A stretch of DNA of 63,625 bases, counting the filler, from Reticulomyxa filosa (Eukaryota > Protista > Foraminifera), in NCBI GenBank assembly GCA_000512085.1. It is 15 parts of 15 records of this genome, joined end to end, with 100 filler letters (N's around TTAATTAATTAA, not from the genome) between each part and the next. Parts side by side here need not be neighbours in the genome. Positions count along the whole stretch, not along the records: positions 53,815 to 58,877 come from ASPP01010321.1; 14 more parts are not named here. One strand, written 5' to 3'. The notes under the pieces are model-generated. The model did not search any database. It was not told where the DNA came from and saw nothing but the letters and a program-made list of their open reading frames with translations. Position 1 is the first letter of the stretch. Every line of letters begins with the position of its first letter. Shown in pieces: positions 1,151-62,365 of the stretch. A program made the position numbers and the translations under genes.

Positions 1151-1353
1151 TTCTTCAAGATAATCTAAATTTAAATTAAAATAACTTCATTGTTTTTCTT
1201 TTGTTTTTGTGTTTCTTTTGATTACTGTATTCTATTTCTTAGAACGAGTTGCTCTTTAAATTAGAAAGACCTGAGTTTATGCATGTAGATGCAAAAAAGC
1301 ATTGCAAGTTGATGATGAAGCTAGAGCCCACAACCAATCCCAAATACTTGACA
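101..1353. repeat. Degenerate direct repeat, 101-490 vs 1070-1353
   Basis: Shared blocks AGATATCAATGTATTGTCCCTGTCAATGAAACA, ATACCAAGAGAAGGATTT, AAGTTTCTTCAAG, TTCTATTTCTTAGAACGA, TGCAAGTTGA and AATACTTGACA occur in the same order in both copies. Confidence 0.85.
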
Positions 1354-2770: not shown

Positions 2771-3339
2771 GCTTCATCAATTTTTATGTTTGTTTTTTAA
2801 TTGCAATAGTTTTATTCAATTTTGTAATCGTGATAACGGATAGTGTTGGATTTTTGTCCATTTTAAGTCTTGAATATGCATTGACATTTTGAAATAGGTG
2901 ATTTAATGAACCATGCTGTTTATAGCACAGTCACATCTTCATCATATTGAACTGCGACGAATACAGTCTGATTCAATAGCACAATATCGTGTTGTCATAT
3001 AATAGTTGAATGAATCAAGGCCGAATGCTCATTTAAATTGGTAAATTTTCGACAATGTAAATCGCAGTGATTCCACAATCAAATAAATCACCATTTGTTG
3101 ACATTTTGTTATTGAATAATATTCCCAAATCCTGTACTTGCCATATATGCCATAATTTCTGTGAGTTGGAATATTCCATAAATGGAATTACTACAAACAT
3201 TGGATGATATATTGATACTTGCATTGTAATATTTACATATCCTTTTATTATTTGCTTTGCTTAGTAATTATAACATACAAACATCGACTATAATTCAAAA
3301 CAAACACACATGAACATTTATACAATAACATATTTGCTT

Positions 3340-5520: not shown

Positions 5521-5980
5521 TCGCGAGTCCATCATAGTGACTGAAGTGTATATCATTCTTTCTTTGCGAGTCACCACGCGAAAAATCTAACTAAAAAAAT
5601 TTTTATCAAACAACAAGTTTTTTTTCTGAACAAAAAGAAAAAATACTTTAAACTAAGCTATTTTTCTGCAGTACATGTTTTTCAATGCTTCAAATCAAAA
5701 ATATTTTTTCCAATTAATATGCGTATTCTAAAACATTATTTTAAGGTTAAAGATCTTAACTGCAGAACATAAATTGCTATTCTGCTTAAGGTGTAATAAA
5801 GTGCTTCGAAACTGTTGATAATTAAGGATAGCGTGCAAACAAAGTGTAACTTTGGAAGAGGAAGAAAGCACAAATTTATTTAAAAACGCAACGCAGACTG
5901 TAGAATTGGCACCTCAAAATTGTGATTAATAGCTTCCCTTGGCCTTGCGTTAGGATAAATACAAGTGCTAAAACCGTGAA

Positions 5981-7594
5981 ATGAAAAATTTGGAAATCGT
6001 TTCCAACACGGTGGACGCAGTGAAAGAGAGCGATGGTAGTCGTCAGTCAAAAAAAAGCAACGAAAGAAATGTTAATGAAATGGGAAATACGAATCCAATG
6101 GGCCTTAGCACCAATCATCTGAGCAGCATACCAGAAAGCAATGTGTCAAACAATGGAAGAGCGTGGGTAGTGTTACCTATCAATGCGAGTGGCAATGATA
6201 AAAGAGAGCGCCGTGACCCACCAACGGTGCAGCTCTTGAGTGATGAAGTGAAGTCCGAAATGCAAATAAAAAAGCGCAAGAAAGCGCGTGCGTCCATGAG
6301 TGAGTGGGGATCATCAGAAAATATGAATGGGACATTTGAGTTTGTGAAATTGGGAACACAAATCGGGGTTAGTTTTTGGATGTGTGGATGCATTGAAGAA
6401 AAGTTGTTTGCAAACCAAACATTTGATTTGCCTTGGTTTTTAGTGACATTTGAATTGCTATTTTTTTGCACTGTCACGTTTGGACGAGAGTGGTATCGAC
6501 AATGTCACCATTGCATCCTCCCAACGGTCCTTTGGACTTTGACTCACAACAAACTAGTCCATGTCTCTCAAAAAGAAAAAGAGATCAAAGATTCGATCCC
6601 CGAGTTGAGTGCATCACAATTCAAATAAACAAACAATAAAATTATAAATAAATTTATTTATTTATAATTTTATTGTTTGTTTGTTTGTTTGTTGTTTTTG
6701 CTGGCACGATGAAATGAACAAATGAGTGAAGTGGTTCTTTGATCATGACACGAAAGTCATCACTTCAACTGCATCTAACGATTGGACTGGCCATGACTGT
6801 CTCGCGAGGATTGACTCTGTTGTCGCTGCTGTACTTGAGTTACCCCACCCAACTTATATTCAAATCCCTGAAATTGCTGATAGTTTTGTTGGGGAGCATC
6901 TGTGCACTGCAAAGGAAATACAATTGCATGGAAGTCACCGGACACGTCTGCATGGCCATTGCTGCCTGTCTCTTCAGCTGGGGAGATCGCCAATCCAATT
7001 CCAAGTTCCATCTCTTTGGAGTTTTTTTGGTTTTGTCCAGGTTAAAAAAATACAACACTTAATGCATATATAAACTTGGGTGCAACATATGTTGTCAGTA
7101 CATGCATTATCTCGATCTTGTCTGTCAATGAATATTTTAAAAACTCAAGTGCAATGTTTGAATGGAATAGCCTGGTGGCTGATTCGGTGCATGCGAATTG
7201 CCAAGAGTACGCATTGACAGTAAATCAATCATCATATAACGAAATGATGCTGTATTCGAATGCCGTGGCGGCAGTATGTTCGGCAATGGTGTGCGTATAC
7301 ACCGGAGAAATGGCTCATGGACTGATGTTCTGCTACGAAAATCCGAGTATGTATGCTCTTTTTTTAATTAGAAACGCCGGACTTTATTTTGGTGCCATTG
7401 CCTATTTGGAAATGACCAAAAAATTTGGCGTGGTTGTTGCGTCGCAAGTTACCACGGCCAGAAAAGTGCTGACTATTTGTAGCTCATTCTATTTTTTTCC
7501 CAAGCCTTTCATCTTTAAACATCAGCTTGGTTCTTTGGCATTTGCACTTTCCATTGTCCTTGGCGTTCTTGGAAAACGCCAGTTGACTGTTTGA
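5981..7594 (+). CDS. UAA-family nucleotide-sugar/PAPS transporter (SLC35B3/PAPST2-like), about 3 exons
   Basis: Motifs LSYPTQLIFKSLKL, ANCQE, EMMLYSN and VTTARKVLTICSSFYFFPKPF. GT-AG intron 7041-7170 restores the frame; the first intron (~6.6-6.73 kb) is not exactly placed. Confidence 0.85.
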
Positions 7595-8115
7595 TTGCTT
7601 TTCAAAATCGAGATAGCATTTTATTTTTGTTGAAACGAATAAACCACTTGTTTGTTTCATTCATTTATTTGTTTATTTTTTTTTGTTTGTCTGTTGGTTT
7701 TGCTTTTGCTTGTTTTTTTCGTTTTTCAAAGCTAGCAGATGATTTTTTGCTGGTTTTTTGTGTACCTTTACGTGATTGTGACATTGTAACAGCATTTTTC
7801 CTTCATTCTCGATTCTCTAATTTCACTAAACATACTTTATTCGTGAATATTATGTTTAGCTGTTGCAATGATTGTGTGTGATTGATATATGTTCCCGTCA
7901 TTTTTTAATTTTCTTTCATCGACTTAGACAAACTATACTTTGTGACTCAAGAAGATATTGCATCGCTTTTTTTTGTTCAAGCAATATTTTAAGTTGAGTT
8001 GATAACATAGTTAATTAGATGACACAATTTTAGTTATCGAAAAGGGAGTGACATATTCAATAAAAAAAAAATCTATGAACGAACAATCTAATATGTTTTC
8101 CACTTAAACACACAG

Positions 8116-8517
8116 TTATTTAGAAGAGGTCAATTCCAAAATTTGTTGAATTAATTTTTCACTCATTCCTTTATGACGACACAACTCCATAAGTTGCATG
8201 AAGTTCATATCGTCAATGGATTGCATTTGTATCTTTTTCCATTCTTCTGACAATGCCTCATATTTTTTTTCCATATCTTGCAACAGTTGCTGTTGTCGCA
8301 ATCTATAGCGTCTCGCAGCGTGTTTGTTGCTTTCGCGACTGTATATTGTCAGTCATAGTTGAATGACTCGCATCGATCAAAAATTTGACAACATAATTTT
8401 CCCATACCGTTTTGTCTCACTGTCGTGGAAGGATGTGCTGTCCGAATTTGTGTCTGAACTTTTATCTTTTGCTTGTTCAACATTTTTCATTTCCACATCC
8501 CTCTCTCCTTTTGGCAT
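8116..8517 (-). CDS. bZIP transcription factor (2 exons)
   Basis: Splicing GT-AG intron 8339-8407 gives KRRESNKHAARRYRLRQQQLLQDMEKKYEALSEE, a basic region (N-x2-AA-x3-R) plus a short zipper. Putative ATG at 8517. Confidence 0.75.
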
Positions 8518-8941
8518 TTTCAACTAAATAAATATTATGCTTGTAAATATATGGAGTTTTTCCAAACAAGTCTTCGTTTGTTAAGCCACCCCTTTTTTTT
8601 TGATAAAATTCTTTTATTATGGCTTAATAAAAACTTGAAAAAATCAATCCCTATGACCTTTTCCACGTCAAAACATGGTCTAAGTCAATCTGTCTGTAGA
8701 ACTCTTTTCATTTGAAAGGCAACGAAATAGATCGTATTGTTGTCAGCTGAACTTTGTTCGCCGACAAAAATTTATTAAAGTATGAAACCCAAAAAAAAGC
8801 TAATTGTTAAGATTTACTGATTTATAGATACATTAAAAAATTTCAAAAATTTGCTTTTTCGTGAATAACTTGCAAATGTTTAAATTAATTTTCGACTTTT
8901 TTTGATATCGATTGTATAGCAAAGAAGTAGAAAACATAACT

Positions 8942-10263
8942 TCAATTTTTTAAAAAGTTATCATCCTCTCCAAAAATTTGTGCAAATGGTGCGTAATTTC
9001 CATTTGGATTGTGTACCTTTCCACAGTTATGATCATTCAAAATTGCGAAACAAATAACGTCAAAGGCATTTCGGAGTCCATGATCTTCGCAAAGCACTTG
9101 GTTAAAAAGTAGAGCCAAATGTTGAGGTGGACAAGAATAAGCGCCACACCCCCATGCCCCTAAAACAACAGCTTTATGTTGAAAATGAAGTGCGCATTGT
9201 AATACCGTTTTGAATTTGCGCTGAATATTCCGAGCCACTTGTTTGGATGATATTTGCAGTGTCTTTGGGTTCAATGCTGGTTTATGGTACATGGCCGCCG
9301 CAATAAAAGACACTGGAAACGGAGTCGAACACAACTTATATCCACTTTCTTCATTATGTCGAAACACAGTGACATTGGGAGAATAAATGCAACCAAATTC
9401 AGGAATTGGATATTTTTTCAATGTGTTTTCCTGCTTTTTTTTCGTGTGCACATTGTCAATTAATGATACTTGATACAACGAACGTCGAAATAAATTTTCT
9501 TCTTGTGCACCAGAGCCTGATTTCCATCCCCCTCCTGGAGTCCTTTCATTTGCCATATTTAAACATATTGGATTTAATCCTTTTTTATATAAGATTTCGC
9601 ATACATCCAAGCAGTCCATATTCGTCGTGAATATTCTCGTTTTTTTATCTGCTCTTTTTATTTTTATTTGTTCACCCTTTTTGATACTACAAATATAATA
9701 TTTGTATTACGATGTACATATATAGTGCGTATACTCAGAACATACATGGACGCTAGCGTGGAGACTTCTTCCCTCTTTTCCTCGTCTAAGGTAATTGGCT
9801 CTGTTGCTTTAATATGATCTTCTTTTTTTGACACAAATGAGCTTTTATTTGTTGTCGCATCTTGTTCTTTTGATTCTGCAAAGATAACAGCCGCATTTGC
9901 GATTATCTCAAATTCGTTTTTTTTGTTCAAATATATGGTTGTGATGCCATCATCCAATACGTATTTTTCAGCTCTTACAATTGCGTTTGTTTGAGACTGA
10001 ATCAGTATTCTCAAATTATGAAAGGACTTTGAGTACTTTGCTTTTGTTTGTTTTGATGCATTGGCCAATTTCATCAATTCACTTAAGCATTCTTTCCATA
10101 ATGTGCTATTATGGGGCAACTTTTCCAGTTCTTTTCTTATCGATTGGACTTGGTTTGGAGCTTGCACTATTTGCCTAAATAATGACTTTTGATACATTAC
10201 TATGTTTTGTGTCGTTTCAGAGGTGATAGTAGACGCATCACAAGAAAATTCTTTTTCAGTCAT
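8942..10263 (-). CDS. Bacterial-type poly(ADP-ribose) glycohydrolase (TIGR02452/DUF2263 macrodomain), about 420 aa
   Basis: Motifs LNMANERTPGGGWKSGSGAQEENLFRRS (GGG-x6-QEE), IYSPNVTVFR and VLGAWGCGAY. The 59-nt GT-AG intron 9687-9745 joins the two ORFs in frame without a stop. Confidence 0.9.
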
Positions 10264-11192
10264 GCTAATAGATACAAAAGACTATTATTAAAATAAAATA
10301 TAGCCCCCGAGACACACGCCGGAAGAACAACCATATTGTATAATCCAAAGTTAGGAGAGATAGTATTCATTGTCCCGTTTATTGGCTTAACTATAGAAAC
10401 TCTTGAATATCAAAACGCTGCCATCATTTCATGGGATGTCGTATGAATATGCATGTGTAAAAATATATACTTTTTTATTCAGACTCTGTTCTTTTCATTT
10501 GAAAATATCCAATCTCAAACAGATGGAAAGGATATAATAAGGACGCTTTGGAGATACAATCTAGTCTTTGTTATCGATAGTAGAAACGATATTAGAATAC
10601 CTTGTGATATGGGCAACTGCGATCACTCGGCTAAAGAGCAGACTCATATCATATTGAAAGAGGAAGACTTAGTTATTTCTATTCCATTATATTTTGATTC
10701 ATTGACCAAGCAAACTCATTTTCAACATTGCACAAGGACAGACTATCTTATTTTTTTCTTTTTCACATACTATTTTTTTGGATGAATGTCAATTTGTAAT
10801 TTATTCTTGTTTTTTCTTGAAATTATTGTTTACATTTTAGAAAAAATATCAGCTAAAGTGTTCAATCCAGTCAATAGTGAAAGTGAATGTTCAATTGTTG
10901 ATTGATAATGTTGTTTAGCATATTCTCAAATGCTAATTTACAAATCAGATAAAAATCGACATGAAACGCATGATTGATGATATAGGTATCTTAAAATATT
11001 CTTTGTTTTTAAAAAAACCGATATACCTTTTATTCATTGTAAATAATAATTGCATTATTCACAATTTGCTTATATTGGAAATTTTACAAGGGTTTTGACT
11101 CAAAAAAAAATGAATATTTATAAATTGATTTTATTTTTATGCAAATCAGGATAAGTCTTTTTGGTCATGGAATATCTTAATTTTTATATAAT

Positions 11193-12776
11193 TTATTCAT
11201 TTATTCTCTTACTTAAATATTTTAGCATTCTTCTTGCTTCTAATGTTTCTTCGGCCCATTCACCCACTATTGCAGAGGATACTTTCCATGATTCTTCAAA
11301 ATAACTGTATGCAATTTTGTTTTCTTGCATTGTTCTATAGATACATCCTAAATTCCAAAGAATATCTTTAATATCATTGTTTATATTTCCAAATATTAAT
11401 TTTTTTATTTGTAATGCTTTTTTATGAAATTCGATTGCTTTATCATATTGTCCATTATCATCATAAGAACAGCCTAAATTAAGATAAGTATCAGCAACAT
11501 CACTATGATTAATACCAAATAAATGTAATCGAATTTGTAATGATTTTTCAAGGAATTCAATAGCTTTATTATATTGATTTGTATTGTGATAAACATTTCC
11601 TAAAGCAAAATATGATATAGCAACATCATTATTATTTATATCAAAAATTTTTAATCTAATTTGTAATGTTTTTTCAAAAAATTCTATTGCTTTGTTGTTT
11701 TCTTCTTTTTTTTCATAAATATATGCTAAATCATAATAAGAATTTGCAATATCATTATGTAAATTTCCAAATATTGATAATTGAATTGTTAATGCTTTTT
11801 CAAGAAATTCAATTGATTTATTATATTCTTTTTTATCAGCATAGGTTTTTGCTATATTACCATATAATTGAGCAATAAATGAACAATTCATTCCAAAAAT
11901 ATTTGATATAATTTGTAAAGCTTTTCCAAATAATTCAATTGCTTTATCATGTTGTCCTTTTTTATTATATGTAAGCCCAATCAAATTGTATGAAATAGCA
12001 ACATAAGGATGATTTAATCCAAAATTATTTATAGAAATTTTTAAATAATTTTTTAAATAAATAATAGAAGTGTCAAATAATTTTTTGGAAGTATATTCTT
12101 CATCTTTATCTTCAAGGTATTGGAGATGTAATGGAATATTATGATGTATCTTAATATCCCATGGAATAACAGAAAAAGATTCTTTCAAATGTTGATCAAC
12201 AATTACATTGCTTGTAACAAATACTTGAGTTGTAATTTTAGTATTTTCTTTATATTGAAATTTGCAATTAACAATATATACATTTCCATCAATATTTACA
12301 CTATCTAATATTATTAATTCTCTTTTTATTGCATATAACCAATAGGTTCGAAATTGTTTTTTAATTATATTTTCATTTTTTATTAATTGGATAAAAGAAG
12401 AGGATGAATCATCTTTTATATCTGTCCATTCTGATGTTCCATAAGCAACAATAATTATTCCTTGTTCATTATCATGTAACATTTGTTTAACTAATTTTGT
12501 TGCTTCTGCATTTGCTTTTCTCCAATTTCTATTCCAATGATTTTTAAAATCTAATGTTTCTGTAACACTTTCCTTTTTACTTTCAAATTGGTCATAATCA
12601 ATAGCATCATTACTTACATTTTGAATTTGTTCTTTTTTTTTAGTATAATCATTACTTTCAGTAATTATCATCAACACATCTTCAACATTAACAGAACAAA
12701 TTTGTTCCATCGTCGCTTTTGGAGATATTATTGAACGTATTTTTGTTCCATCTTCTACATAGATTTTAGATGACAT
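11193..12776 (-). CDS. TPR-repeat protein (42-aa kinesin-light-chain-type repeats) with uncharacterised N-terminal and central domains
   Basis: Intronless ORF with about 6-7 repeats of VAxSYxxLGxxYxxxxQYDKAIEFxEKALQI. Likely start MSSKIYVEDG at 12776. Confidence 0.9.
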   Translation of the reverse strand: MSSKIYVEDGTKIRSIISPKATMEQICSVNVEDVLMIITESNDYTKKKEQIQNVSNDAIDYDQFESKKESVTETLDFKNHWNRNWRKANAEATKLVKQMLHDNEQGIIIVAYGTSEWTDIKDDSSSSFIQLIKNENIIKKQFRTYWLYAIKRELIILDSVNIDGNVYIVNCKFQYKENTKITTQVFVTSNVIVDQHLKESFSVIPWDIKIHHNIPLHLQYLEDKDEEYTSKKLFDTSIIYLKNYLKISINNFGLNHPYVAISYNLIGLTYNKKGQHDKAIELFGKALQIISNIFGMNCSFIAQLYGNIAKTYADKKEYNKSIEFLEKALTIQLSIFGNLHNDIANSYYDLAYIYEKKEENNKAIEFFEKTLQIRLKIFDINNNDVAISYFALGNVYHNTNQYNKAIEFLEKSLQIRLHLFGINHSDVADTYLNLGCSYDDNGQYDKAIEFHKKALQIKKLIFGNINNDIKDILWNLGCIYRTMQENKIAYSYFEESWKVSSAIVGEWAEETLEARRMLKYLSKRINE

Positions 12777-13661
12777 CTCAGAAATAATAAGGACTTCAAA
12801 AGTTATAATTGAAAAAAATTCTTTGTGTAGTTGAACAGAAAATAGGAATCCCAAAAGAGATTACATATTTATTGATCATATGCATTCTTTCTTGATCGAA
12901 TATCCTACAAACAAACACTTTTATCATATTATGAAACATGGATGCAATTTAAAGTTGTTTCTAATGTGAATAAGCTAAAATACATTATTCTATTAAAAAA
13001 AGCAATATACTTTTTTTGATAAATATAAAAGATTGAAAGAAAATAATAATTTCAAAATAGTAAGGGAAATGTATTTGAATATATTATGGAATATTTTGAA
13101 AGTTAAACATCTTAAATATCGACAAATTAACAATAAAATTTATATAATAATTTATTACTCAAATGTCATCAATTAAGTGTAAATGTAAATAAAATATTTA
13201 TTATTATGGATCATAAGTTACAACAATTTGGTTTTAAAAAAGACAATAATAATTGGCATTATCCAAATAATAATACCCAGTTATTATTGTGGAATTGTTA
13301 TAAAGCATTTGTTAATGAATAAATCATGTATTATACAAACATATATGTGTACATTTATTTTATTTAATAACAAGAAAAGAAATAAAGAGTTTATGATTAA
13401 TTGTTGTAATAATGAAATCAATTTATTTGCTATTTATTTGTCTAAAAATAAAATTATAGGAGAAAACCAATATTTAATTTGCAATAACAAATGCTGTTAA
13501 CAATGGATTACCATTTGTTGAGAAAGACAAAAAAGAAACAAAAAATTATTTTCCAAAATAAAAAAAATACTTAAAATATGTTAATCTTATGATTTATATC
13601 TTTAATTTTAGTGAAAAAAAATCAAATTAGTTAAATTTTTTTGTTTTTGAAAAAAACAATA

Positions 13662-15043
13662 CTATCCCCATATATGAATAGGACCCTTGAATGAACCATG
13701 ACACATATTAATATCATATCCACAATTATCATTGATTTTATTTTTGTTTTCTCGATTCTTAAATAGCAGAAATTTAAGACACAGTATTTCATCATCTTTA
13801 TTACTTCCTTTGATCCTATATAATTCCTTCTTACTTGATCGAATATCCCAAAAACGAATTGTATTATCTCCTGACCCAGAACATATTACATTTGAACTAC
13901 CTCCAACTTCGCTGTTCTTTACTGCAAATTGTGAATATTCAACGATATTTACATTACGTGTATGACCATTGAATATTTGAATTCGTTCACCAGATCGAAT
14001 ATCCCATAAACGGACACTTGTATCTTGTGATCCGGATAATATTGTATTTCCTAGTTCATTTGATCCATATTTTACACTCCTAATCCAATGTTCATGTCCT
14101 TTAAATATAATTAATTGTTTAGTTGTTTCAATATCCCATATACAAATTGTATCGTCAAATGATCCAGAACAAATAGTATATCCATTACCACCAATAATAC
14201 CAATACTATTATTTTTATTATCTTTGTTGATGTTATTGTTTTGTAATGGTGAAAAGTCCACACAGAAAACATTATGTGTATGTCCATTGAAAACATGTAA
14301 TGATTTAGATGTTTCAACATCCCATAAACGCATAGTATTGTCACCAGATCCAGAACATAAATATCGACCACCATTAAATGATGAAAATTCAATACCAAAG
14401 ACATGACTTGTGTGCCCATTAAATATTTGTAATTGTTGATTGTATTTGACATCCCAAAAACGAATAGTTTTATCATATGATGAAGAACAAATGACATTAC
14501 GATGATAATTAAAATGATAATTTAATGAAAATTTTACACTATTTACATAACCTGAATGTCCTTTTAATAATTGAATTTGTTTATTTGTGTCAATATTCCA
14601 TACGCGAATTGTTTTATCATCTGATCCAGAACAAATAAATTGACAACTATCAAGTATTGAATAATCGATATTATTCACACATTGAAGTATGTCCTTTGAA
14701 AGTTTTGAGTAATTTAGATGATGAACGGAACGTGTCAAGCATGAAAAATATTGTTGTCTGTGTTAACAAATAATTATTTGAATAATTTAATTGTCATTGA
14801 ATGAAAAACAAATAGACTTAACATAATTGATAACAAGTTTGTCAAAATCATTTATCCATCCTAATTTAATTCCTAATATTCGAATCCAATGTTCAATAAT
14901 TGTTTTGATATCTTCTTCTAACTGATTCAATTATAAATTACACACAATAAAACTATCAAGACAATCAGCTTTCGAAAGGGTAAACTGTGGCTTACCAATG
15001 TTAGTTGTGTTGAAGCTTGTTTTTCATCGCCGAGGATATTCAT
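13662..15043 (-). CDS. WD40-repeat protein, 3 exons (frameshift near 14690-14705, possible homopolymer error)
   Basis: Repeated GH...ICSGSxDxTIRxWD motifs. Exon 1 MNILGDEKQASTQLTL, exon 2 at 14823-14921, exon 3 begins FMLDTFRSSSKLLKTF and then slips frame at T-runs. Confidence 0.85.
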
Positions 15044-15335
15044 TCTTTTTTCCTCTTAGATGATAAATGTTAGAACTTTTTTCTCTCAAGATCAACAAAA
15101 GGGGTTGTAAAAAACGCTTTGTTTTGGAGTTGCTGTTGTCAAGTTAACAAAAAAAAGCAATTTGGTAATGTCAAAATGACAAAAGACGAACAAAAATTTT
15201 CATTTGAGTTGTCTTGTCATATTTATAATAATGTTTAATGAATTGTTTATGGAATTCTTCAATAAAAAAAGCGAACAAAAATATATAATCATGATTTATT
15301 TGTTTAGTAAAAAAAATGTTTGTTGATTCGTGTCT

Positions 15336-16466
15336 TTATCCCCAAATTTGAATTGTAGCGTTATTAGTGCCTGATGCAATTAGTGCTCCATCTGGTGAAA
15401 CATCCAAACAAGTCAAACTTTGATAATTTTCCAATCTTTGTATTTCGCTCCATGTTTTTACATTCCACAATCGAATTGTACCATCACTTGAACAAGACAC
15501 AATAATTTGACCATCTGGAAAAAATGTTACATCTTCAACATTTTTCCACAATATTTTTAATAATTTTCCTGAGTTAACATTCCATATTCGAATTGTATTA
15601 TCACGTGAACATGATACAATAAATTGACTATCTGGAGAAAACCTTGCACATAATACTATAAAAAAATGAAGTTTCAATTCTTTCAATCTTTCTCCTGATT
15701 TTACATCCGATAAACCAATAGTGGCATCTTCAAATGCTGTTACAACCATTTTTCCATCTGGTGAAAATTCTACACTACTTGCAGCACTTAAACGACAAAC
15801 TAATTTTTTAATTTCTTTTCCAGAATTTGCATCCCATAATCGTATTTTTCTATCGCTTGAACTTGATACAATACTTTTACCATCTGGAGAAAAGTTTACA
15901 TCAAATACTGAATTTAAATTTTCTTCAAATTTCATCAACTCTCTTCCTGATTTCACATCCCATAATCGAATTGTACCATCACTTGAGCATGTAACAGCAG
16001 TATTTCCATCTGGTGAAAAGTTTGCACTATTAACACGATCAGAATGCCCTTTGAAAGTTTGAATTTGCCTACCTGATACTACATCCCATATTCGAACTAT
16101 TTGATCAAGCGATGAAGAAATAAGCTTGCTACCATCTGATGAAAATCGTACTCTAGTTACTCTATCCTTGTGTCCTTTTAACACTTTTAACAATTGGAAA
16201 GATTTCACCTATGTTTTAAAAGTCAAATAAATAATGACAAAGTAAATATAAAAGTAATACTTAACATATTTAAACACAATTTTGTCAAAATCTTGAACCC
16301 ATCCAAATTTAATATGTAAAATCCGAATCCAATGTTGATTTACCACTTTTATCATTGTCTCTGACTAGTTTGACATAAAATAAAACAAACTCTAGACAGC
16401 CAGCTTTTCGAAAGAATGAACTAAGCTTACCAATGAAGTTTGTTTTTCGTTGCCATAACTGTTCAT
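15336..16466 (-). CDS. WD40-repeat protein, 3 exons
   Basis: Seven FSPDG...SxSxDxTIRLWDV repeats. Exon 1 MNSYGNEKQTSL, exon 2 at 16266-16364, exon 3 at 15336-16208. Confidence 0.9.
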
Positions 16467-17378
16467 CTTAACTTCTTTTTTTTCTCTTAGATGCTAAGAT
16501 GAAAAACGTTTGAACTTTTATATCAACATTTAAAAACTCTGTTTACGGTGTTAATCAAATAAAAAAATATTAAAGTGTTAATTTTGTTTTTACGTTGTGT
16601 AACCATGTTTATAGTTGTACTTTTTCAGTAAAAACACATAAAAATTGTTCAATGTGTTATTTTCTTTGAAACAAATGCAAATTATAAAACATAAACATAC
16701 GATATTAAACAACGTAGTCAAATAAATCCATTATTATACAATTTGGAACATTTTTTATGCATGTCAAGATAAAATAGTTGCTTTTGTTAATCATTTAAAC
16801 AATTGTTTAGTAGCTTGACAATAATTGTCTTCACTTTATGTTACAGTATCAATGACCTTGCAGAAAACATAGTGAATTTGATGACTTGGCAATTATCGAA
16901 ATCAAAATTTAACAAATAAATCATCTGCAAAAAAATTCTTAACGAATAATTGAAATAAAAAATAGTGATGGCAAAGTAATCGATAGCCACATAATTGTTT
17001 TCCAACTTTATTGTCAGAAAATTTGTCATCTTTTTAGTGCAGCACAATCGTTTGCGGTTTGTCATATTTTCTTCGTTTCAGTTTACAACTTTTTTAGATT
17101 TCACAAAAGCGAAGACAAAAGTATCAAATGATAAATATTCAAATGTCATAGATTAAAAACGTTGTGAAGAAGATTTGTTTTCTCAAAACGAAAAAGCAAG
17201 AACTAATTTATTGTTTTTATATCCTCTCCAAAGTGCCTATTTGAAAAATGTTGAGTTTTTGTTTTTAAAAAAAACCAAAGACCAAAACAAACAACAAAAG
17301 AAAAGCTATTCAATGCACGTCATTCTGTTCGTTTAGTGCTACAAGTAATTTTTTTCCTCTTTTCTCCACAAGAAGAAA

Positions 17379-19023
17379 TTAGGAAGAATTGAGATGCGCT
17401 TCACGTGGAGGAGGCAGTTTCCATGGCAAGAACTCATTAAAAATACAAAAAACAATGGAGTCTAAGATAAACATAAGAAGAGCAGGAAGCAGGAAAGCAT
17501 ATCCAAAATGTTTATGACATAAGAAAATGAAAGGTCCACCAAAAGCACTGACAAACAAAGGTCCAAAAGCACTTTCAAATTCCAACAAATAATTGAGCAT
17601 CACTCTTTTCTGAGAAGTTTTGTTGAATTCAATGACCAAGGGTAAAAATTCATGTTGGCTCAATCGTTGGGACGTTTGTAGATGCAATTCAATGAAGAAT
17701 CCAAACAAAGAGATGAAAATTAATAAGGTGATTTTATCTTCAGTCATCCATAAAAGATACAAGTGATTGACATGCCATACTCGCCAAATAAAAAGAGATT
17801 TCGAGTTGAAACCAAAGAGTTGATCGTTTCATACAACAAACTCGCGTTAATTTGCACTAAGGCCATGAGCAGTAGACCAAACACGCCAAAGGTCAACCCA
17901 GATTCAAAGTTATGAAACGAGGTCGAGTCTGTATCCGCTTTTGGCTTCCCATTGAAAATGTCAATCGCGCAATACGATGTCCAGAACAGCACTACACTGC
18001 ACATTGTTATCCCCAAAAATATGACTGAACCACAGCACATAGACAGCGCGCAGCGTATCGTCCGTCATAAAATCTTTATAAAACTCGTCTACTTTTTCTC
18101 TGTCACATATATACAAATACATATGTATATACTTTACATTTATATTGATATGCACGCAATCAATATTCTTTAAATGAAATCAACAGCACCCAACTCTTGC
18201 TCACTCACGTCCATTGGCAAGAAGTCGCGCTTTTGTTCGAAAGGCTCCTCTTCCTCGTCACTGTGTCTCTCGTCATCACCACTGTCATACGGATCGCTAT
18301 AATGCTCCATGTTATCATCTGCCTTGGATGAGCGCATGTGGGCCGAGTGTCCTGGTTTGTCGTGATCTTTCTGCAGCAGCGTTTTGATTTCTGTGTCAGT
18401 GTACTGATCGGGGTCTTCGTCGATGCTTTTCAAAAACGTAATTCCAGTGGCATACCTCTTGGATGCTTCATGCGTGTGCGAGAGCGTTGCCAATGTTGGA
18501 ATGTCTTCATAATAGTAGGCAAGTTCATTGGGATTGGGAGACCACCACAAACAAACGCCGGCAGACACAAGTACAATGAGACTTCCCATGGTGAACACCC
18601 ATATGATATTGCTCAATTTGTCTCCAAACAAGTCCCATTCGAGCCACATCCCCACCACGGCGTAGCCCAGCATACGCGACAGTCCTTGAACCACAGTCCA
18701 CGTCCGCAACGTTTCCATATAAGACACCGTGTTGCCAACCGTTACTTCCCATAGCAGCGCTTGCAATGGACGTGACAACACTTTGTGTCAACATATGCCA
18801 CACACACACATACACACACATATGCATAGGTGTTCACGTTGGATTCAAATACGTACACACAAAAATAAAGCATAAAAAAGTTTATTTCAAAAATTGGTTA
18901 TCCACGAGGAACCAACCCCGCGCTAATGTACAATACTGAACAGTAATGGCATGTGTCCATAATGGTAAAAAATACTGTTAATAGCAGTACCACTAATGCC
19001 GTTGAATGTACATTGAATATACT

Positions 19024-19061
<38 letters not shown>
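17379..19061 (-). CDS. SLC45/sucrose-H+ symporter (GPH/MFS)-like transporter, 5' truncated, with apparent frameshifts
   Basis: Multi-TM ORFs with an acidic central loop and LFWTSYCAIDIFNGKP...FESGLTFGVFGLL, resembling the SUT/SLC45 LFxTDWMG..G.P...GV..G..GL motif. Confidence 0.65.
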
Positions 19062-19161
19062 NNNNNNNNNNNNNNNNNNNNNNNNNNNNNNNNNNNNNNN
19101 NNNNNTTAATTAATTAANNNNNNNNNNNNNNNNNNNNNNNNNNNNNNNNNNNNNNNNNNNN
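19062..19161. other. Artificial contig spacer N44-TTAATTAATTAA-N44 (1 of 14)
   Basis: Identical 100-bp spacers also at 24615, 30128, 32245, 33533, 39224, 41239, 45385, 47275, 48876, 53715, 58878, 60818 and 62366. TTAATTAATTAA gives stops in all six frames. Confidence 0.98.
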
Positions 19162-24614: not shown

Positions 24615-24714
24615 NNNNNNNNNNNNNNNNNNNNNNNNNNNNNNNNNNNNNNNNNNNNTTAATTAATTAANNNNNNNNNNNNNNNNNNNNNNNNNNNNNN
24701 NNNNNNNNNNNNNN

Positions 24715-24748
<34 letters not shown>

Positions 24749-24804
24749 TATGTATGTATACGTATATATGTACATATATATATATGTATATAAAGATAAG
24801 AAAA

Positions 24805-26618
24805 CTTGCGGAAACATTAAGTCGTGCAGTATTTTGTTGGAAAGAGAAATGGAACCATTCGGTGTGATTGCTGTTAGAAGACGAGGACGAGGTGGAGATC
24901 CAGCGTTTGGGCAAGGTGCCCGACAAATAATTTTGCGACAAGCTGACGAACTGAAGACTGTTGTTGTTGAGGTCGTGCAAGGAGGAGGAGGAGGGTACAC
25001 TGGGCAGCTCTCCATAAATACCACAGTTGTGAGAAATAAAAGCTTGCAATGGCGGTCGATACAGCGACGAAGGGATTGTACCGACGAGGTGGTGGTTGTT
25101 GAACAGTGTTAAAATGTTCAAACGCGGCGCACATGCGAACAAGTGGTCCAGCCACGAGTGTAAATGGTGGTCCACTAGTTTGTTGTTGTGCAAGGTCAAG
25201 GAAATCAGGTTGCGCATTTGCGTCGGGAACACAGGCAAGCTCGCAGAAAAGTGATTATTGTCCAACGACAGCAGTGCCAATTGCGAGTTGTTTGTAAACA
25301 ATGGAAAAGACCCATGCAATTGATTGTTTGACACGGACAGTTGCGCCAATGTTCGTGAATTTGCAAACGAAGGCAATGTTCCCATAAACTGATTGTGACT
25401 CACGTCCAGTGATATCAATGCCGTCCATTGCTCCAATTCCTTGTCCAACGTACCCTCAAACGAATTGTTTGCCAAATTCAACACTCTCATCATATTCTGT
25501 CCGTTTGTCCATATCCACGTCGGTACTGTCCCCGTCAGTTGATTGCTCGACACGTCCAATCCTTCCATCACTTTCCAATACTTGCCCAGATATTCCGACA
25601 TCGTCCCACTCAACTCGTTCTCTCGCAATAGCAGTGACACCAAGCTGCTCAAATTCCCTAACTCCGCTGGGATTGATCCTGTCAATGCGTTTTCTTGCAA
25701 GCTCAACATTGTCAATACCTTCAAATTACTATATATGTACATATATATATATATATATATATTCCTTTTTACGTATAATTATGTTTGTAACAAAAAAATA
25801 AAATATGAACACAGTTGCATGCACAGCCTCATCTTGCATCAATGAGGAAATTTCTCCTCTTGCACTCTCTTCTTTGCATATAACTTCTCCCAGCGTGCAC
25901 GTAGGTGCATGTTCGAAGTGTACGTATACATATATGTATATACATATATACATATGTATATATATTCTCTCAAACCCGAATTGCGGTGGTATTGTGCCGT
26001 TGAAAAAATTATCCGACAAGTCGACTTCGACTAATAACGACAATTGGGCGAGTTCGACGGGAATGGTGCCATGGAGACGATTGCTGCCAAGAAAGAGGAC
26101 TACAAGGAATCTCCAGTGGGAAATGAACGAAGAGATCGTTCCGGTGAGGGAATTGAAAGACGCCATGAACGTAGTCATTCGCGTGCAGTTTTGAAACATA
26201 CTGCTGGGAATGGACCCGCTCAATCGGTTCATTGCCAGATCAAACGTGGTGAGAGACTTCAAATTCCCATATGACTCTGGGATGCTTCCTTCCAGTTGGT
26301 TCTCCGTAGCACTGATCCAATACAAAGAGGGATTGGAATACCCAAATTCCGGAGGTAGCGTCCCACTCAGCGCATTTCCATCTAACGCTAGCTGCCGTAG
26401 CTGCGAAAGACGAGATAACTCACTCGGAATTGTACCTGTTAATTCATTGAATTGCAGTCCAAGTACTTGCAGTCCACTCAATTGTCTGAATACGTATACA
26501 ACAACAACAACAACAAAATCCTGTTTAATGTATACCTACGTATACGAAAATGTATAAACATAGAATGCAAAATAAATAAATAAATAAAATTTATATATGT
26601 ATACATATATGCATGTAT

Positions 26619-26655
<37 letters not shown>

Positions 26656-27208
26656 GTAACCCCAATTCACTTGGAATTGTTCCCGTCAAATGACTCTCTT
26701 GCAAATACAAAAATTGCAAAAGCGTCAATCGCCCAATTTCAATTGGAATTGTTCCACTTATATTTGTGGAGACAATCCAAAAGTCTCCCAACATTCGCAA
26801 CAAACCGATCTCTTTTGGGATTGTGCCATATAGGTTTGCGTACTCAAATATCAAAATTTGTATCTGTGTGAAGTTGCCTATGCTTTTGTCTATCGTTCCG
26901 TGCAACGAGTTGTTCAACAACTCCATCCCTACCACATGCGCTGCTCGTCTTGCTGCTATTGGACGTCCGCATGTTACACCCCAAAACGAACAGAAATCAC
27001 TCGACGTCACGTTCGTCCAATTTATTGCCCATTGGTGGGTCCATCCTGGTCCGTTCGTGCTATTGTATAATTTCACAAGTGCCAACTTTTCTTCCAACGG
27101 CAACTCCTCGCTTAGTGACGAGTTCCCAGTGGTTGCGCCCCTGCTATAACAGGCTAATTGTGATAGGACGAACAACCACAAGGGGATATTCAACATAAAC
27201 CACCGCAT
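24805..27208 (-). CDS. Secreted/receptor-like protein with plant-specific-type LRRs, at least 3 exons, 3' truncated
   Basis: Signal peptide MRWFMLNIPLWLFVLSQLAC, LRRNT cap (EKLALVKLYNSTNGPGW...CSFWGVTC) and about 20 LxxLxLxxNxLxGxIP repeats. GT-AG introns near 26485-26660 and 25729-25975. Confidence 0.9.
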
Positions 27209-27521
27209 ATACATATATTTCACTGAAATTTTTATTTTTTTCTCTTTCAAATTTTTTTGGATCACAGCACAGGACGACAAGAGCCCCTGGCTTTTTTTTC
27301 CTAGCTTCAAAACAAAAAAAACAATTTTAATTTGCATCAACAGCTTTGAAAAGTGACACTGTGTTTATGTGGATTTTTGTTTAAAATTCTGACAGTTGGA
27401 ATCAGGTATAATATACACGAAACACTGACAAAACGACAAAAGAGTTGTATTACAGTATATTTTGTGCTGAAGTGCAGTTCAAGGGGCAACCAGTATTCCT
27501 CATTCTCACAGTACATATTCA

Positions 27522-53265: not shown

Positions 53266-54012
53266 TTGAGCATATAGCAACAACATTATCATTCTCAATG
53301 ATGAATATGACAAAATACGTTGTATTTTTTTTCATTTTTCAAAGAAAAAGCAAAAAATAATCTTTACTAAAAAAACAAAGAAAAAAATTTACATAAATTG
53401 CTGATTTGTTATAAAGTTTAATCTTTATCTATTTACTATAAAAGTATTTTTTGAAACTCTTTTATATTTCTGAATAAAATATTTTTTTTTTTTTTTTTTT
53501 TCCGATCTTGCAAAAAACCAAGTGTGGAAGTGACAGTGTTGGACTCTAAACTTTGTCTTAACACTTTACACTAAAGTCGGCACACTTTGCTTAAATAACA
53601 AGTTAAAGTACCCAATCCAAAAGGACATAGCACTCAAGAAAACAAAACCACAGTCTTTTACTTATCTTTTCGATTTGTAAAGGTTTTTTGGTAGTGAAAA
53701 TTGTAGTTGGTTTTNNNNNNNNNNNNNNNNNNNNNNNNNNNNNNNNNNNNNNNNNNNNTTAATTAATTAANNNNNNNNNNNNNNNNNNNNNNNNNNNNNN
53801 NNNNNNNNNNNNNNAAACGTTTTGATTGTTACAAAAAAATTATTAAAGATGAATAATTTAACAAAAAAGCGAAAGTGTCACCACAACTACAATTTTATTT
53901 CTTGAAAAACCATGAAAAAAACAAATAAATAGAACAGACAACGGGTTTACTTTGCTTTGGGATGTTTTTTAAAAATTGACGCGAAAAATAAACAACGAAG
54001 AACTTTTTAAAA

Positions 54013-54382
54013 ATGTCATTATCTTCCTCGAAAGAAAAGGAAACAACAGTGACAACAACAACAACAACACCAGCGACACCAATAACAGATGCAGAACGAG
54101 ACATATTATCTGGATTAGAGCCAGCGCAGAAGCTGTTTCACTTTGCAAGGAGGGGAAATGTAGCAGGTTGTCGTGATGTGTTGAGGCTGAACCCGACATT
54201 GGTGAATGAAACTGACGAAGGTGGTGACAATGGAGTTTACAAGACTCGAAACACTGCCTTGCACTTTGCCTGTCAGTATGGTCACTTAAACGTAGTCGAA
54301 CTATTGCATAGTATGCAAGCAAACATCGAATCTCGCAATAAGTTTGCTTCTCACTAAACTTTTTTTTTTTTTTTTTTGAAGT

Positions 54383-54413
<31 letters not shown>

Positions 54414-55134
54414 AATTTTCGATACGGAACAGCACAAAAACAAAAATGAGAAAAGATTGAGCTCAACACCGTTGCACATTGCAGCTGCCCATGGACATGA
54501 AGCAATAGTCCGGTTTTTAATAAAAAAGGAGGCCAGTATTAACGCTAAAAATGTGATCGAAAACACGCCGTTGCATTGTGCCATTTATGCTGGACACATT
54601 GGGTGTGCAGAGGCATTGCTAGAAAAAGTCGAAAATGTCAGAGAAACACTTTTGCAGACACCTAATGGGTATCATCTTGCACTTTTGCTTTTTCCCATCT
54701 CTCTTGATCTCTTCTCTTTCCTCTCTTAAAACTTTGTCAGTGGAGAAAGAGTGTGAAAGCCTTCGAAATAACAATTTTTTTAAAAAAAAAAAGTTCCTCT
54801 TATTTTGTCAATCTTTTTTATCTGTCCATTTTTTTTTTAGGCGACTTGCCTTAATGAGACTGTTAGTTTAAGAATAATACAAAAAAGAGGTGATATACAA
54901 ATATATACATATATGCTATTAAATATATAAAATAGGGTGGGTATAAGTCCTGCAAAATATGCATGGAATGGCCCCATGAAAGAATTTCTAAAGCGTATAA
55001 TTGAAACGTCTATTTCTAATGAGGAAAGCACTAAGACAAATGGTAACGGTAATGATAGTAATCATATAACAAGTGGTCAGACTGGATCATGTTTGGAAAA
55101 TACACTCTCACAAGAGCATAAAACAGATCCATAA
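54013..55134 (+). CDS. Ankyrin-repeat protein, 3 exons
   Basis: Motifs NTALHFACQYGHLNVVELL, STPLHIAAAHGHEAIVRFL and NTPLHCAIYAGHIGCAEALL, with GT-AG introns. Confidence 0.9.
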
Positions 55135-57181
55135 AAAAAAGATTCATCTGCAAGGTGGAATGGAAAGAAAATGTGCCATTCCAGTTGATAAAAAAAAAAA
55201 GTAAGGAGGAAGTATTTATTCATTTTATTCGATTTTGTTATTTGTTTAAGGCCGTTTAATTGGCACTGTTGACGTTGTAGCATTGCAATGTTTGTGTTTG
55301 AGTTGTGCAAATTGTTGCTTACATGGAAATGGAAAAGGGCTCCTTCGAAAAAAAAGGAATTGTTTTCTTTACACGAACGTTACTAAAAGAAAAAAGCCAA
55401 CAATTCAATAGCTAGAACCTGGAGAAAATTTTGCAGCATATGTTCAATGAAGGTGTTCTTCAAATGCAATACCCCAACTGCGTTACCGCACAAAAACTTC
55501 ATATTTCGAAACAATTCGTTAAGATCACCGATCCATGTCAGTCTTTTTAGTATAAAATTACGTGTAAATAAGAAGACTTACCGCTACTGATATTGTAACT
55601 TCTTGTTGTGCTCATTCCTTAACCATTATTTGCACGAGAAATTGATCAATCAAAAATAAAACTTTGGCTCTTTCAAACGACAATTCAACTAATTTAACAT
55701 CAGTTTGAAAACCTAAATTAAAAAAGTTTCATTTCCAGCTGAAATTATTTATATAAACAAAGAAAAAGAAAAGCACCAAGTTAGCTTTACAAGGCCGAGT
55801 ATCTTGGGGAGGGCGAGATATCACTATCCATGTTTTCGGGAAAGTAGGGTGGTTGCTTCTCGACCGTGGCTCAGACCATGTATTACTTTCTTGCAACTTT
55901 TCTTGAAAATATATTATGTCCTCCTTTGGTGTGGTAGCACAAAAGCTTTATCAGCATTTTTTGGGTGGTTTTTCAGAAATTTCGTAGCTTCTTTGAACGT
56001 GTAGGTCACTCCAATCTACAAAACCTAGTGTAGCAGATTTCATTCGTGTTTTCTTTCCATCAAACCAAAATCAGATGGTCTAACTTAAGGAACATTGCAA
56101 GAAGTATGACTATGCAACAAACTACTACAATCGCAATAAGAAATGTTTTGTACAGAACGTAATTGACAGTAAAAGAAACCTCATCTAAAGCAATGCCACT
56201 TTTTTGTTAGCTTTTCAAAGCTTCTGTTGACAGACTTCCTGGATAAATTTTGCAGCAATTGCTAAACAAAAAAAAAGCGTTTTTGCTTATTTGTTCAAAG
56301 GAAGACGTGAGGGCATGACACACAAAAATTGCTTTAACACAAGAAACAAAGACTAGCGGCGAACGAAATGAATAACTTTTATATGTGGAATGCTGGTTCA
56401 ATGATATACTTAATTATGATGTTTCCACAATTGATTAGATGATACTTATTTTAGAAATTGCATGATGCGACTTTATGCAGAAATGAGCTCTATTTTACAA
56501 TACACAACTACAGAATATAAGGGGCAAAGACTTAAAAGAATTGCTAAATGCCAAACTAAAGAAACTCTAGTCTGACACTTTGCATTCATCGATTGAGATT
56601 GAATCATTTTTTTTATGTATTGATTTACGAAATACTAAGAGAATTATCTGTTATGCTCATTTCCAAAAACATTGTTATGTTTATCCGCAGTTTTTTTAAA
56701 TATCTCTTTAAGCCATTTTTGATTCAAGAAATATTGTGAATTTAATTGATTCTTTCTGTTTGAATTATATGTCTCACTTATATAAATTGGAGTGTACACC
56801 CAGTTTTACATACAATGCACTGGAAAAACGATTATCGTTGTCTCTGCAACGGGGAGAACTAAAAAAAGGGAGCAAGTGGAACACAAAAGGATTGCAAGTC
56901 TTCTTGTTTCCTTGCAACTAAAAAATTTGGAAGAGAAAGTGTTCAGTTTTACCAACACTAACATAAATGATAATGATAAGACAAGAAATGCAGCATTCCA
57001 TTTTAAGATCACTGATAACTAAGGCCAAAATATTGTCAACGGTCAAAAATTAAAAACTGCATTTGAGGCTGCGCCTGTTTGTTTTTTGTTCATTTCTTCA
57101 CAGTTGCATTTCTCTTTATTTTATTTTAATTCAAAGCAAAATACACAGAAAAAAGTGATTGATAAAATAAATGCGCAGAAG

Positions 57182-58770
57182 ATGAAAAAAAAGAGAAACA
57201 GAAAAATGTATCAAAATAATGGATCAATTGGTATTATTAGCAGGAGCTGCAAGATATAAAAACTTAGCTTATTTGCCTGGAGTAAAAAAAAGATTTAGTG
57301 ATGCTTCGAAATTTATTTGAAGAAATGTATGGATACACGTGTATTGTACGTATGACCCAAATAAACCAGAAACACAATCATTGATTAACTCAATTTAATC
57401 TTTTTTTAATGAAACATTATACTGACTTAGTCGAAACAAACATGAATAACAATGGTAATAACAGGTATTATGATTCGTTCATATTTGTATGGTATGATCA
57501 CGGTAACACGGCATCAGAAAAAGAGATATATTAATCACATCAGATGACGATAAATACAAATCGTTCAAAAAAATTCAGGAATTATTTGCACATGATACAG
57601 ACGTGCTTTTGAATATTCCAAAAATATTTATTTGGAATACATGGTGGAAATGAACAATCTCATCAACGTAAAAGAGGAAATCAACAATGGTATAATAATG
57701 AATCATATTTTTGTCATATTTTCAACAACTCCTGGAAAATTGATCTTTGATTCAATGGATTTTTATAAAGGAAGTCATTTTACAGAATGCTTTTGTAATG
57801 TCATATCCCAAAATATTATATTTATCAAACCTTTGAAAGATAATTTAAGACTGATCAGTAAATCGATTAAACAAAAGGCATTGATCAGACAAATTATTCA
57901 AACTACTACAACTTGTGATCGACATGTTTTGCTTTATAATAATTGTTATTATCATTTGTTATATGCAAATGTTGAGATCGACCAAAATTATCTATGGATC
58001 ATGGATCCAAGCAAATAAAAAAGCATGAAATAGTCAAAGAAATGATCAATGAAAAACAACAAGGAATTGCTGTTGTTTCAACTATATTGATCAATTGGCA
58101 AAGGTCAATGATAAATGGTCTTGGCAAGTACCCTCATTTACAATGATAAACTCAATTCAATATATGAAAAAGAAATTAATCATTGTACCATATTCTGTTT
58201 GCTCATTCCATTCAAAAAATATTACATTTGATAACATTACAATTAATGGTTGTGTTTACGTTATTGGTTGTACTATCGATGGAATTGGGAAGTGTCATAT
58301 TACTCAACAACTTATTCATACTGATAAATCTGTTGTCCATTATCATTTCAAATCTCCTGATGTTGCTGCTATATATAACAATTTGGGACTTGTGCATGAC
58401 AGCAAAGGAGAATATGATAAAGCACTTGAATGTTATCAAAAAGATCTTGAAATTATTTTGAGCAAATTTGGTTTAGATCATCCTGGAGTAGCTACTTTAT
58501 GTAACAATATAAAATATACTTATTATAACAAACAAGAATACGACAAGACAATGAAATTTGCAAAGGAAGCTTTGAATTGGGGAATGAAGAAATTAGATTT
58601 TACTCATCCATATATTGGTGATTCATGTATTCTTTTAGGAAATATCTATCGGAAAAATGAGAAAAAATGAATGCAAAAAAGTGTTACGAAAATGCATTGT
58701 CAATTTTTATACAAAAATTGGTAAATATCATAATACACAAAACGTAATGTTAGAATTGAAAAAATTGTAA
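57182..58770 (+). pseudogene. Caspase-like (peptidase C14 fold) + central domain + TPR gene, pseudogenised
   Basis: Across frameshifts: LVLLAGAARY..LPGVKKD..LRNLF, YDSFIFVWYDHG, LITSD, IPKIFI, IFVIFSTTPGK, GSHFTECFC, then TPRs (VAAIYNNLGLVHDSKGEYDKALECY). Confidence 0.75.
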
Positions 58771-58977
58771 GAATGTTTAAATTTCAATTTAAGTAAAATC
58801 TATTTTGGAGCCAAACTGATCTCAAAAAACAGATTAAATGTGCAATTATTTCAAAAATGTATTGCTTTTGTTTTTTTNNNNNNNNNNNNNNNNNNNNNNN
58901 NNNNNNNNNNNNNNNNNNNNNTTAATTAATTAANNNNNNNNNNNNNNNNNNNNNNNNNNNNNNNNNNNNNNNNNNNN

Positions 58978-61949: not shown

Positions 61950-62365
61950 ATATCAATCAGTAAATGCCAATAACGCATTTTGTAGCTTTACTTCACTTTG
62001 GTGATTTATTGTTGGCTGAAAAAGACTTTATTATAACGCTTTCATTTACACATGATTTTTGAGAAAAGATATGATGTTGTGTCAAATTATATCAACTATT
62101 GCCTGCATGCCATTCACAGATCTTGGTAGATTTGTCCTAGCCATTAAAAAAATTCAGAAATATTAACTTTTAGTGTAGATTGTTTGGAAGTACCAAATGA
62201 TCAATTATGGTTAATATAGCATGGAGGACATGCAGATGAAACAGAAGATATAAAGAATGGTGAAGTACTTCTGCAATAAATCATTTGTTATTTATCACTT
62301 ATAGGCCAAAGAATGTTAGTTTGTTTGATTTAAATATATTTTAATGTATTAAGCATGATATTTTA
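61950..62365 (+). pseudogene. Kelch-like beta-propeller pseudogene fragment
   Basis: INHLLFITYRPKNVSLFDLNIF at ~62276-62342 resembles my recollection of a foraminiferan Kelch-like family; the rest is degenerate. Confidence 0.35.

Follow-up and report, generated by a model that had tools for sequence, protein, structure and literature searches.

The locus at 56879-58720 (plus strand) of the window, that is, of the whole stretch of 63,625 nucleotides of DNA from the foraminiferan Reticulomyxa filosa that was analysed, is best explained as a pseudogene of a large gene family in which a PB1-like domain, a caspase-like domain, an unnamed central domain (CEN) and TPRs are combined, and whose intact members are likely to be cytosolic ligand-binding signalling scaffolds. 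The TPRs would bind the ligand, the PB1-like domain would provide clustering, and the caspase-like domains would serve mostly as scaffolds; for this explanation as a whole our confidence is evenly balanced. The CEN family is likely a lineage-specific TPR sensor or scaffold, clustered by PB1 rather than by CEN.

Among the proteins found, the closest intact relative of the pseudogene is P0142 (RFI_27043, 831 aa) of R. filosa, with the architecture PB1-like, caspase-like, CEN, TPR; family profiles find these domains in the same order in the pseudogene. A frameshift-aware alignment to P0142 spans 56879-58720, with 357 of 573 aligned residues identical (62%), and is interrupted by one stop and ten frameshifts. 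The first-pass annotation had let the broken gene begin at 57182 and thereby missed the PB1-like domain, with which the gene starts at about 56879, some 300 nt further upstream. The parts of the pseudogene are the following:

56879..57088, plus strand: PB1-like (beta-grasp) N-terminal domain; profile matches at 56882-57019 and 57023-57088, aligned to P0142 residues 10-78
57089..57212, plus strand: AT-rich linker, poorly aligned to P0142 and containing stops; possibly an intron (limits approximate)
57213..57946, plus strand: caspase-like (peptidase C14) domain with six frameshifts, from the family profile and the alignment to P0142
57968..58358, plus strand: CEN of clade B type with three frameshifts and its C-terminal end deleted, from the family profile and the alignment to P0142
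58359..58720, plus strand: shortened array of 42-residue TPRs, about three units, with one frameshift near 58660, from TPR matches and the alignment

The in-frame stop (57020-57022) lies inside the PB1-like domain, the ten frameshifts span 57288 to 58660, and the C-terminal end of CEN has been deleted together with several TPR units. Six of the ten frameshifts fall at sites with no base run longer than three, so that a true pseudogene is more likely than an assembly error, and is the most likely reading of the sequence; that sequencing error alone produced the frameshifts is unlikely on the same count, to which the stop and the large deletion are added. As judged from these lesions, the copy is non-functional. 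The caspase-like region, split over six reading-frame pieces, has the HG and PKIFI strands by which it was recognized in the first place; its last piece matches PF00656 weakly (E=0.025), and an intact paralog does so with E=2.8e-17. The catalytic His is kept (VWYDHG, codon 57499-57501). The position of the catalytic Cys (57642-57644) is within a frameshift, as the earlier description of a disrupted Cys region implied, and the residue once there is thus unreadable. The public partial model P0120 is identical to the last piece of the pseudogene over 70 of 70 residues and is probably a model of this very locus.

The window also holds an intact member of the family, P0001, with the following parts:

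11193..12776, minus strand: intact paralog P0001, single frame, 527 aa, clade A, with a short N-terminus, CEN and a TPR array
12573..12776, minus strand: N-terminal 68 residues, probably a decayed PB1-like start, from a weak profile match and the truncated starts of relatives
12084..12575, minus strand: intact CEN, used for the structure model, from the family profile
11202..12083, minus strand: TPR array, from TPR and family profile matches

The window consists of 15 contig pieces joined by 14 N spacers (19062-19161, 24615-24714 and 12 more, each with N runs around a 12-base spacer), so that adjacency across the spacers is meaningless; P0001 is on the piece 1-19061 and the pseudogene on the piece 53815-58877, which are from different contigs and need not be neighbours. 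That the central regions of the two genes align had been proposed by eye, and the alignment is well beyond chance: CEN of P0001 against 57950-58360 gives a frameshift-aware score of 101, as compared with 31.8 +/- 3.5 (maximum 41) for 100 shuffles, none of which reaches 101. The family CEN profile matches two pieces of the pseudogene with E=3.4e-25 and E=1.7e-5, and P0001 with E=1.4e-69. On this sequence evidence the two central regions are homologous, and TPRs follow them in both genes, as had been described; the genes belong to different clades of the CEN family. By contrast, the N-termini of the two genes, previously called unrelated, are probably related by decay and not by a swap. The pseudogene starts with the PB1-like domain and the first 54 residues of P0001 match the same profile weakly (10.1 bits, reached by none of 500 shuffles, the best of which scores 9.6); since P0024 and P0080, from the subclade of P0001, have similarly truncated starts, the start of P0001 is probably a decayed PB1. 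A family profile scan found no caspase-like module in P0001.

Other observations concern the surroundings. About 1.5 kb downstream of P0001, on the same contig and strand, 8945-9706 (minus strand) encodes a microbial-type PARG catalytic domain (PF10021, E=2.2e-24), and 13481-13537 (plus strand), about 700 nt from the start of P0001 and on the opposite strand, is a short remnant with similarity to the end of the ART-like module in P0089 (E=0.003). At 62273-62341 (plus strand) there is a fragment (E=6e-7) of the same Kelch-type family as the modules that some members carry in fusion with CEN. Further repeat-protein families are represented at 13665-16208 and 24747-27364 (both minus strand) by WD40-repeat genes and an LRR gene with an LRR N-terminal cap.

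Profile searches with CEN returned 38 proteins, 114 representatives among 1.84 billion and, with a two-clade profile, 29 proteins. The final set comprises 139 CEN proteins, including P0001, P0120 and one near-duplicate pair; left out were two pieces from the window, the low-complexity tandem repeats P0100 and P0133, and an unrelated fragment (P0139, a 42-residue cluster member). All 84 named proteins are from R. filosa, the other 54 besides P0001 having no name seen, and a scan with the intact CEN as query through contigs from metagenomes, prokaryotic genomes and viruses, which senses close relatives only, found none; so far, the family appears to be known only from R. filosa. TPRs follow CEN in 126 of the 139 proteins. 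Upstream of CEN there are PB and caspase (37 proteins), PB only (36), caspase only (12), fewer than 60 residues (40), Kelch (3), Kelch and caspase (2), an ART-like module (1) or unassigned sequence (8), in counts that rest on public protein models, in which a decayed caspase region may be skipped as an intron and neighbouring genes may be fused. Many of the 40 proteins without an N-terminal module are partial models. Kelch is assigned from a Pfam match (E=1.2e-9), and the ART-like label is only an Atlas lead (score 0.86) without a Pfam match. Two members depart from the usual order in that a PB1-like domain comes after CEN or CEN-TPR and not before it (P0107 and P0129, possibly through a fused neighbouring gene), and in P0041 (RFI_16440) the CEN-TPR unit occurs twice in a row, which is either a genuine duplication or the product of a fused gene model.

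A tree of 107 CEN rows, built by a quick method that leaves 63 of 104 inner branches open, separates two clades with 97% SH-aLRT. The PB-plus-caspase label is scattered over it (27 changes for 30 rows; shuffled mean 26.4), which is the pattern expected of repeated loss or gain, and Kelch-bearing rows occur in at least three places. The modular family with caspase fusions and terminal TPRs that had been postulated from the two window genes is thus borne out by the 139 proteins, with 51 caspase-like domains among them, and its N-terminal partners vary instead of following a single fixed architecture. The idea of swappable effectors is overstated: PB1 and caspase dominate, and Kelch or ART-like N-termini are found in 6 of 139 proteins, or 8 if one Kelch remnant and one ART-module tail are counted under relaxed scoring. 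Judging from the gene models, members differ in architecture chiefly in whether a caspase-like module follows the PB1-like domain.

CEN is about 160 aa long and is predicted to be a compact alpha/beta domain. Its model, built from 92 rows (pLDDT 90.5, pTM 0.86), has an N-terminal helix/strand half, short strands between residues 87 and 126 (87-90, 94-95, 97-102, 105-108, 113-114, 118-120 and 125-126) and a closing helix that runs into the TPR region. The median pairwise identity of the rows is 43%; in the 92 rows G97 is invariant and W18, G39, Y78, I95, D96, Y100, C104 and I114 are conserved in at least 90%, the conserved columns being mostly hydrophobic or Gly, as expected of a structural domain. 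The first-pass view of an unnamed, NTPase-free domain agrees with these data: a Walker A pattern occurs in one of 109 rows, at a non-conserved spot, no NACHT or NB-ARC is among the Pfam and NCBIfam matches of 20 rows at E<=1, and in the same 20 rows no well-known family recurs, each Pfam family being found in at most one row and each NCBIfam family in at most two. The CEN profile finds nothing below E=0.26 among PDB sequences, Foldseek finds nothing at E<=1e-3 in the PDB and viral libraries, and the Atlas feature search gave no usable match, with structure neighbours at TM <=0.41 (bactofilin or beta-helix rows at TM <=0.40). The best VIA-align values are Z 4.2 (rmsd 4.4, 108 aligned) in the wide search and Z 4.9 (rmsd 6.2, 108 aligned) in a second look, below the tool's typical 7-8 for unmatched models. 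These failed matches do not make the fold new.

Among the weak structural rows, chains of deaminase fold recur (best Z 4.2, rmsd 3.6-5.7), and on that account the true effector of the family might be CEN itself, as a divergent version of a known fold, such as that of deaminases, with enzymatic or ligand-binding function. We consider this very unlikely, as the Z values lie below the 7-8 typical of unmatched models, the conserved columns have the composition of a structural domain, and HxE and PCxxC, the zinc ligands of the cytidine-deaminase fold, are absent from the 92-row alignment. The short strands of the model are spaced at about 19 residues, as they would be in a small beta-helix; the alignment gives this period no significance (it is reached in 471 of 2000 shuffles), and no beta-helix protein is recognizable among the 50 VIA-align rows of the wide search. 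Two succinyltransferase rows of the second look align CEN residues 34-105 to chain residues 13-79 with Z 2.1. A homodimer prediction for CEN scored 0.00, which, with no alignment and an uncertain fold, is evidence in neither direction.

A candidate clustering module is already present in the family in the form of the N-terminal domain, for which a PB1-like fold is predicted. Its model (32 rows, pLDDT 96) has the layout beta-beta-alpha-beta-alpha-beta, and Foldseek places AtNBR1-PB1, itself a filament structure, at rank 1 (E=8e-4, TM 0.61), with PB1 or PB1-like structures in nine of the first eleven rows and ubiquitin-like rows close behind, so that the PB1 match is not far above them. The best PDB sequence match of the profile is Bem1 (E=0.022), and no Pfam PB1 match is among the best 25 of 38 families listed. 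Front-to-back pairing of PB1 domains, by which they can form polymers, uses a basic Lys in beta1 and an acidic OPCA motif. In the family, the beta1 Lys is found in 31 of 57 rows and an acidic D-x-N/D-G-x-x-I-E-T-D motif recurs, with Asp at two of its positions in 44 and 49 of the 57 rows; the other positions that are acidic in the PB1 consensus are often Asn or Gln.

The caspase-like domain is real, with PF00656 matches of E=2.8e-17 in P0124 and E=2.1e-9 in P0037, and that of P0142 matches caspase-7 with E=3e-5, its nearest solved structures being caspase-7, Dronc and caspase-3. Its description as an effector is overstated. Both catalytic positions are readable in 46 of the 51 domains, of which 14 have the His, 5 the Cys and 2 both, namely P0124 (RFI_05058) and P0142 (RFI_27043), both of clade B type like the pseudogene; the inspection of intact paralogs that had been suggested for the His/Cys dyad accordingly finds it in these two and misses it in the other 44, and the domains are predicted to be mostly catalytically dead. 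Tyr is the usual replacement at both sites (27 and 28 of 46). The QACRG and SWR motifs of caspase-7, whose residues bear on Asp specificity, align to NACRG and IFD in P0142, which makes this specificity doubtful.

Such losses might be the outcome of mostly neutral churn, in which one ancestral PB1-caspase-CEN-TPR gene was copied often and most copies are decaying. The dead copy in the window, the loss of the dyad in most members, the many models that are fragments and the extreme duplication on the R. filosa branch (passages of PMC11069148) are in line with it, and, gene duplication being very heavy in R. filosa overall (same passages), the expansion of the family alone need not be adaptive. 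However, the conservation of CEN, invariant at G97 and at least 90% conserved at eight positions in spite of a median identity of 43%, points to selection on the fold, and the dyad has been replaced repeatedly by the same residue and not randomly, so that we regard churn as an improbable account of the family.

The repeats are 42-residue TPRs of the kinesin-light-chain type, kinesin light chains being the best natural PDB matches. Between 1 and 16 units are detected per protein (125 proteins), and within 73 arrays the internal identity is 33% at the median and 71% at most. Members of the family could be immune receptors analogous to NLRs, in which CEN would be an NTPase-free switch and oligomerisation hub that couples sensing by the TPRs to interchangeable effectors. 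The constancy of CEN between variable N-termini and the repeat array, the caspase-like, ART-like and Kelch partners, with Kelch rows in at least three places on the tree, the variable number of TPR units and strands about 19 residues apart, which would fit a two-coil beta-helix, can all be quoted for it. Nevertheless, we think it unlikely: the dyad is missing in 44 of 46 caspase-like domains, partners other than PB1 and caspase make up about 5% of members, the ART label is a lead only, the 19-residue period is not significant, and the TPR arrays show no homogenisation, in contrast to fungal NLR arrays, 21% of which exceed 85% internal identity by a measure that differs from ours (passages of PMC4986451). 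Nothing that would point to a role in immunity was found. Distinctly unlikely is a bolder version, in which CEN would be an undescribed fold acting as an NTPase-free switch, and sensing of foreign or damage signals by the TPRs would lead to PB1-assisted clustering of animal-like caspases, a few active and dozens of them pseudo-caspase regulators, with occasional ART-like or Kelch swaps. If true, it would amount to an independent invention of inflammasome-like logic in Rhizaria, and a receptor function in general would mean that in a giant multinucleate protist sensing by TPRs can lead to the activation of caspases without an NTPase.

In the preferred reading, that of signalling scaffolds, the TPRs would bind a peptide or protein ligand, and CEN, joined to the beginning of the TPR solenoid, would be an invariable structural or regulatory element. 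The PB1-like domain would cluster family members head to tail, and clustering would bring caspase-like domains together; the few dyad-intact members could cleave substrates, and the many dead ones may be scaffolds or tuners. The family would turn over as its genes are duplicated, lose modules, now and then acquire Kelch or ART-like ones, and become pseudogenes. Two members with an intact dyad, P0124 and P0142, can be named as assay candidates, and CEN, being confidently modelled without a clear family or fold match, is a good target for structure determination.

Caspase-like proteins of Reticulomyxa are already known and have been placed next to animal caspases (PMC5982838, PMC10565124) or used as an outgroup (bioRxiv 10.1101/2023.12.11.571055), and their position as sister group or outgroup of animal caspases has, in the passages of these three sources, been used to argue that the last eukaryotic ancestor had caspases. 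At least 51 caspase-like domains of Reticulomyxa belong to one multidomain family and the dyad is missing from almost all of them, a point of relevance to the reading of such outgroup sequences. In the published proteins the PF00656 domain lies nearer to that of animal caspases than to metacaspases, with which the search with P0142 agrees, and some members of the CEN family are already called 'Peptidase C14 caspase domain-containing' in UniRef; the passages on the published caspases, which may or may not be CEN proteins, make no mention of PB1, CEN, TPRs or dyad loss. No description of CEN or of its architecture was found in the literature searched, in which both are apparently undescribed; the family may be mentioned in Glockner 2014, the paper on the genome, or in the supplement of PMC5982838.

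As to known systems, NLR/STAND receptors have a central P-loop NTPase (NACHT or NB-ARC) with Walker A and B. The CEN family resembles them, and especially the fungal effector-NB-ARC/NACHT-TPR proteins (passages of PMC4986451), in a variable N-terminus, a constant middle, a TPR array of variable length and a large number of paralogs. The C-terminal superstructure-forming repeats are present, and the N-terminal variability consists of four module types, dominated by PB1 and caspase, as counted from gene models. Unlike in NLR/STAND proteins, the middle of about 160 aa is without Walker A or NACHT/NB-ARC, most 'effectors' are predicted to be dead, and the arrays are not homogenised as about a fifth of the fungal NLR arrays are (identity measures differ; passages of PMC4986451). 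Though the module-middle-repeat layout is shared, the defining central NTPase is missing and, by its sequence, the family is therefore not a member of NLR/STAND. With kinesin light chains it shares the 42-residue TPR type; unlike in these, no kinesin-binding coiled coil is seen and CEN precedes the array. PB1 scaffolds (NBR1, p62/SQSTM1, Par6, Bem1/Cdc24) are alike in the N-terminal beta-grasp, whose basic beta1 and acidic motif residues are partly conserved in the CEN proteins, whereas in the CEN family the PB1-like domain is fused to caspase-like, CEN and TPR parts and falls below Pfam PB1 detection. Finally, cFLIP is a pseudo-caspase, with the caspase fold and a replaced dyad. Cyanobacterial pseudo-orthocaspases likewise have the caspase fold with the His/Cys dyad replaced, often with Tyr at the His site (PMC6426788), and the CEN family is like pseudo-caspases in the fold, the replaced dyad and the frequent Tyr at the His site, but differs from both in lineage and partners and in that dead members far outnumber the dyad-intact ones within one family.
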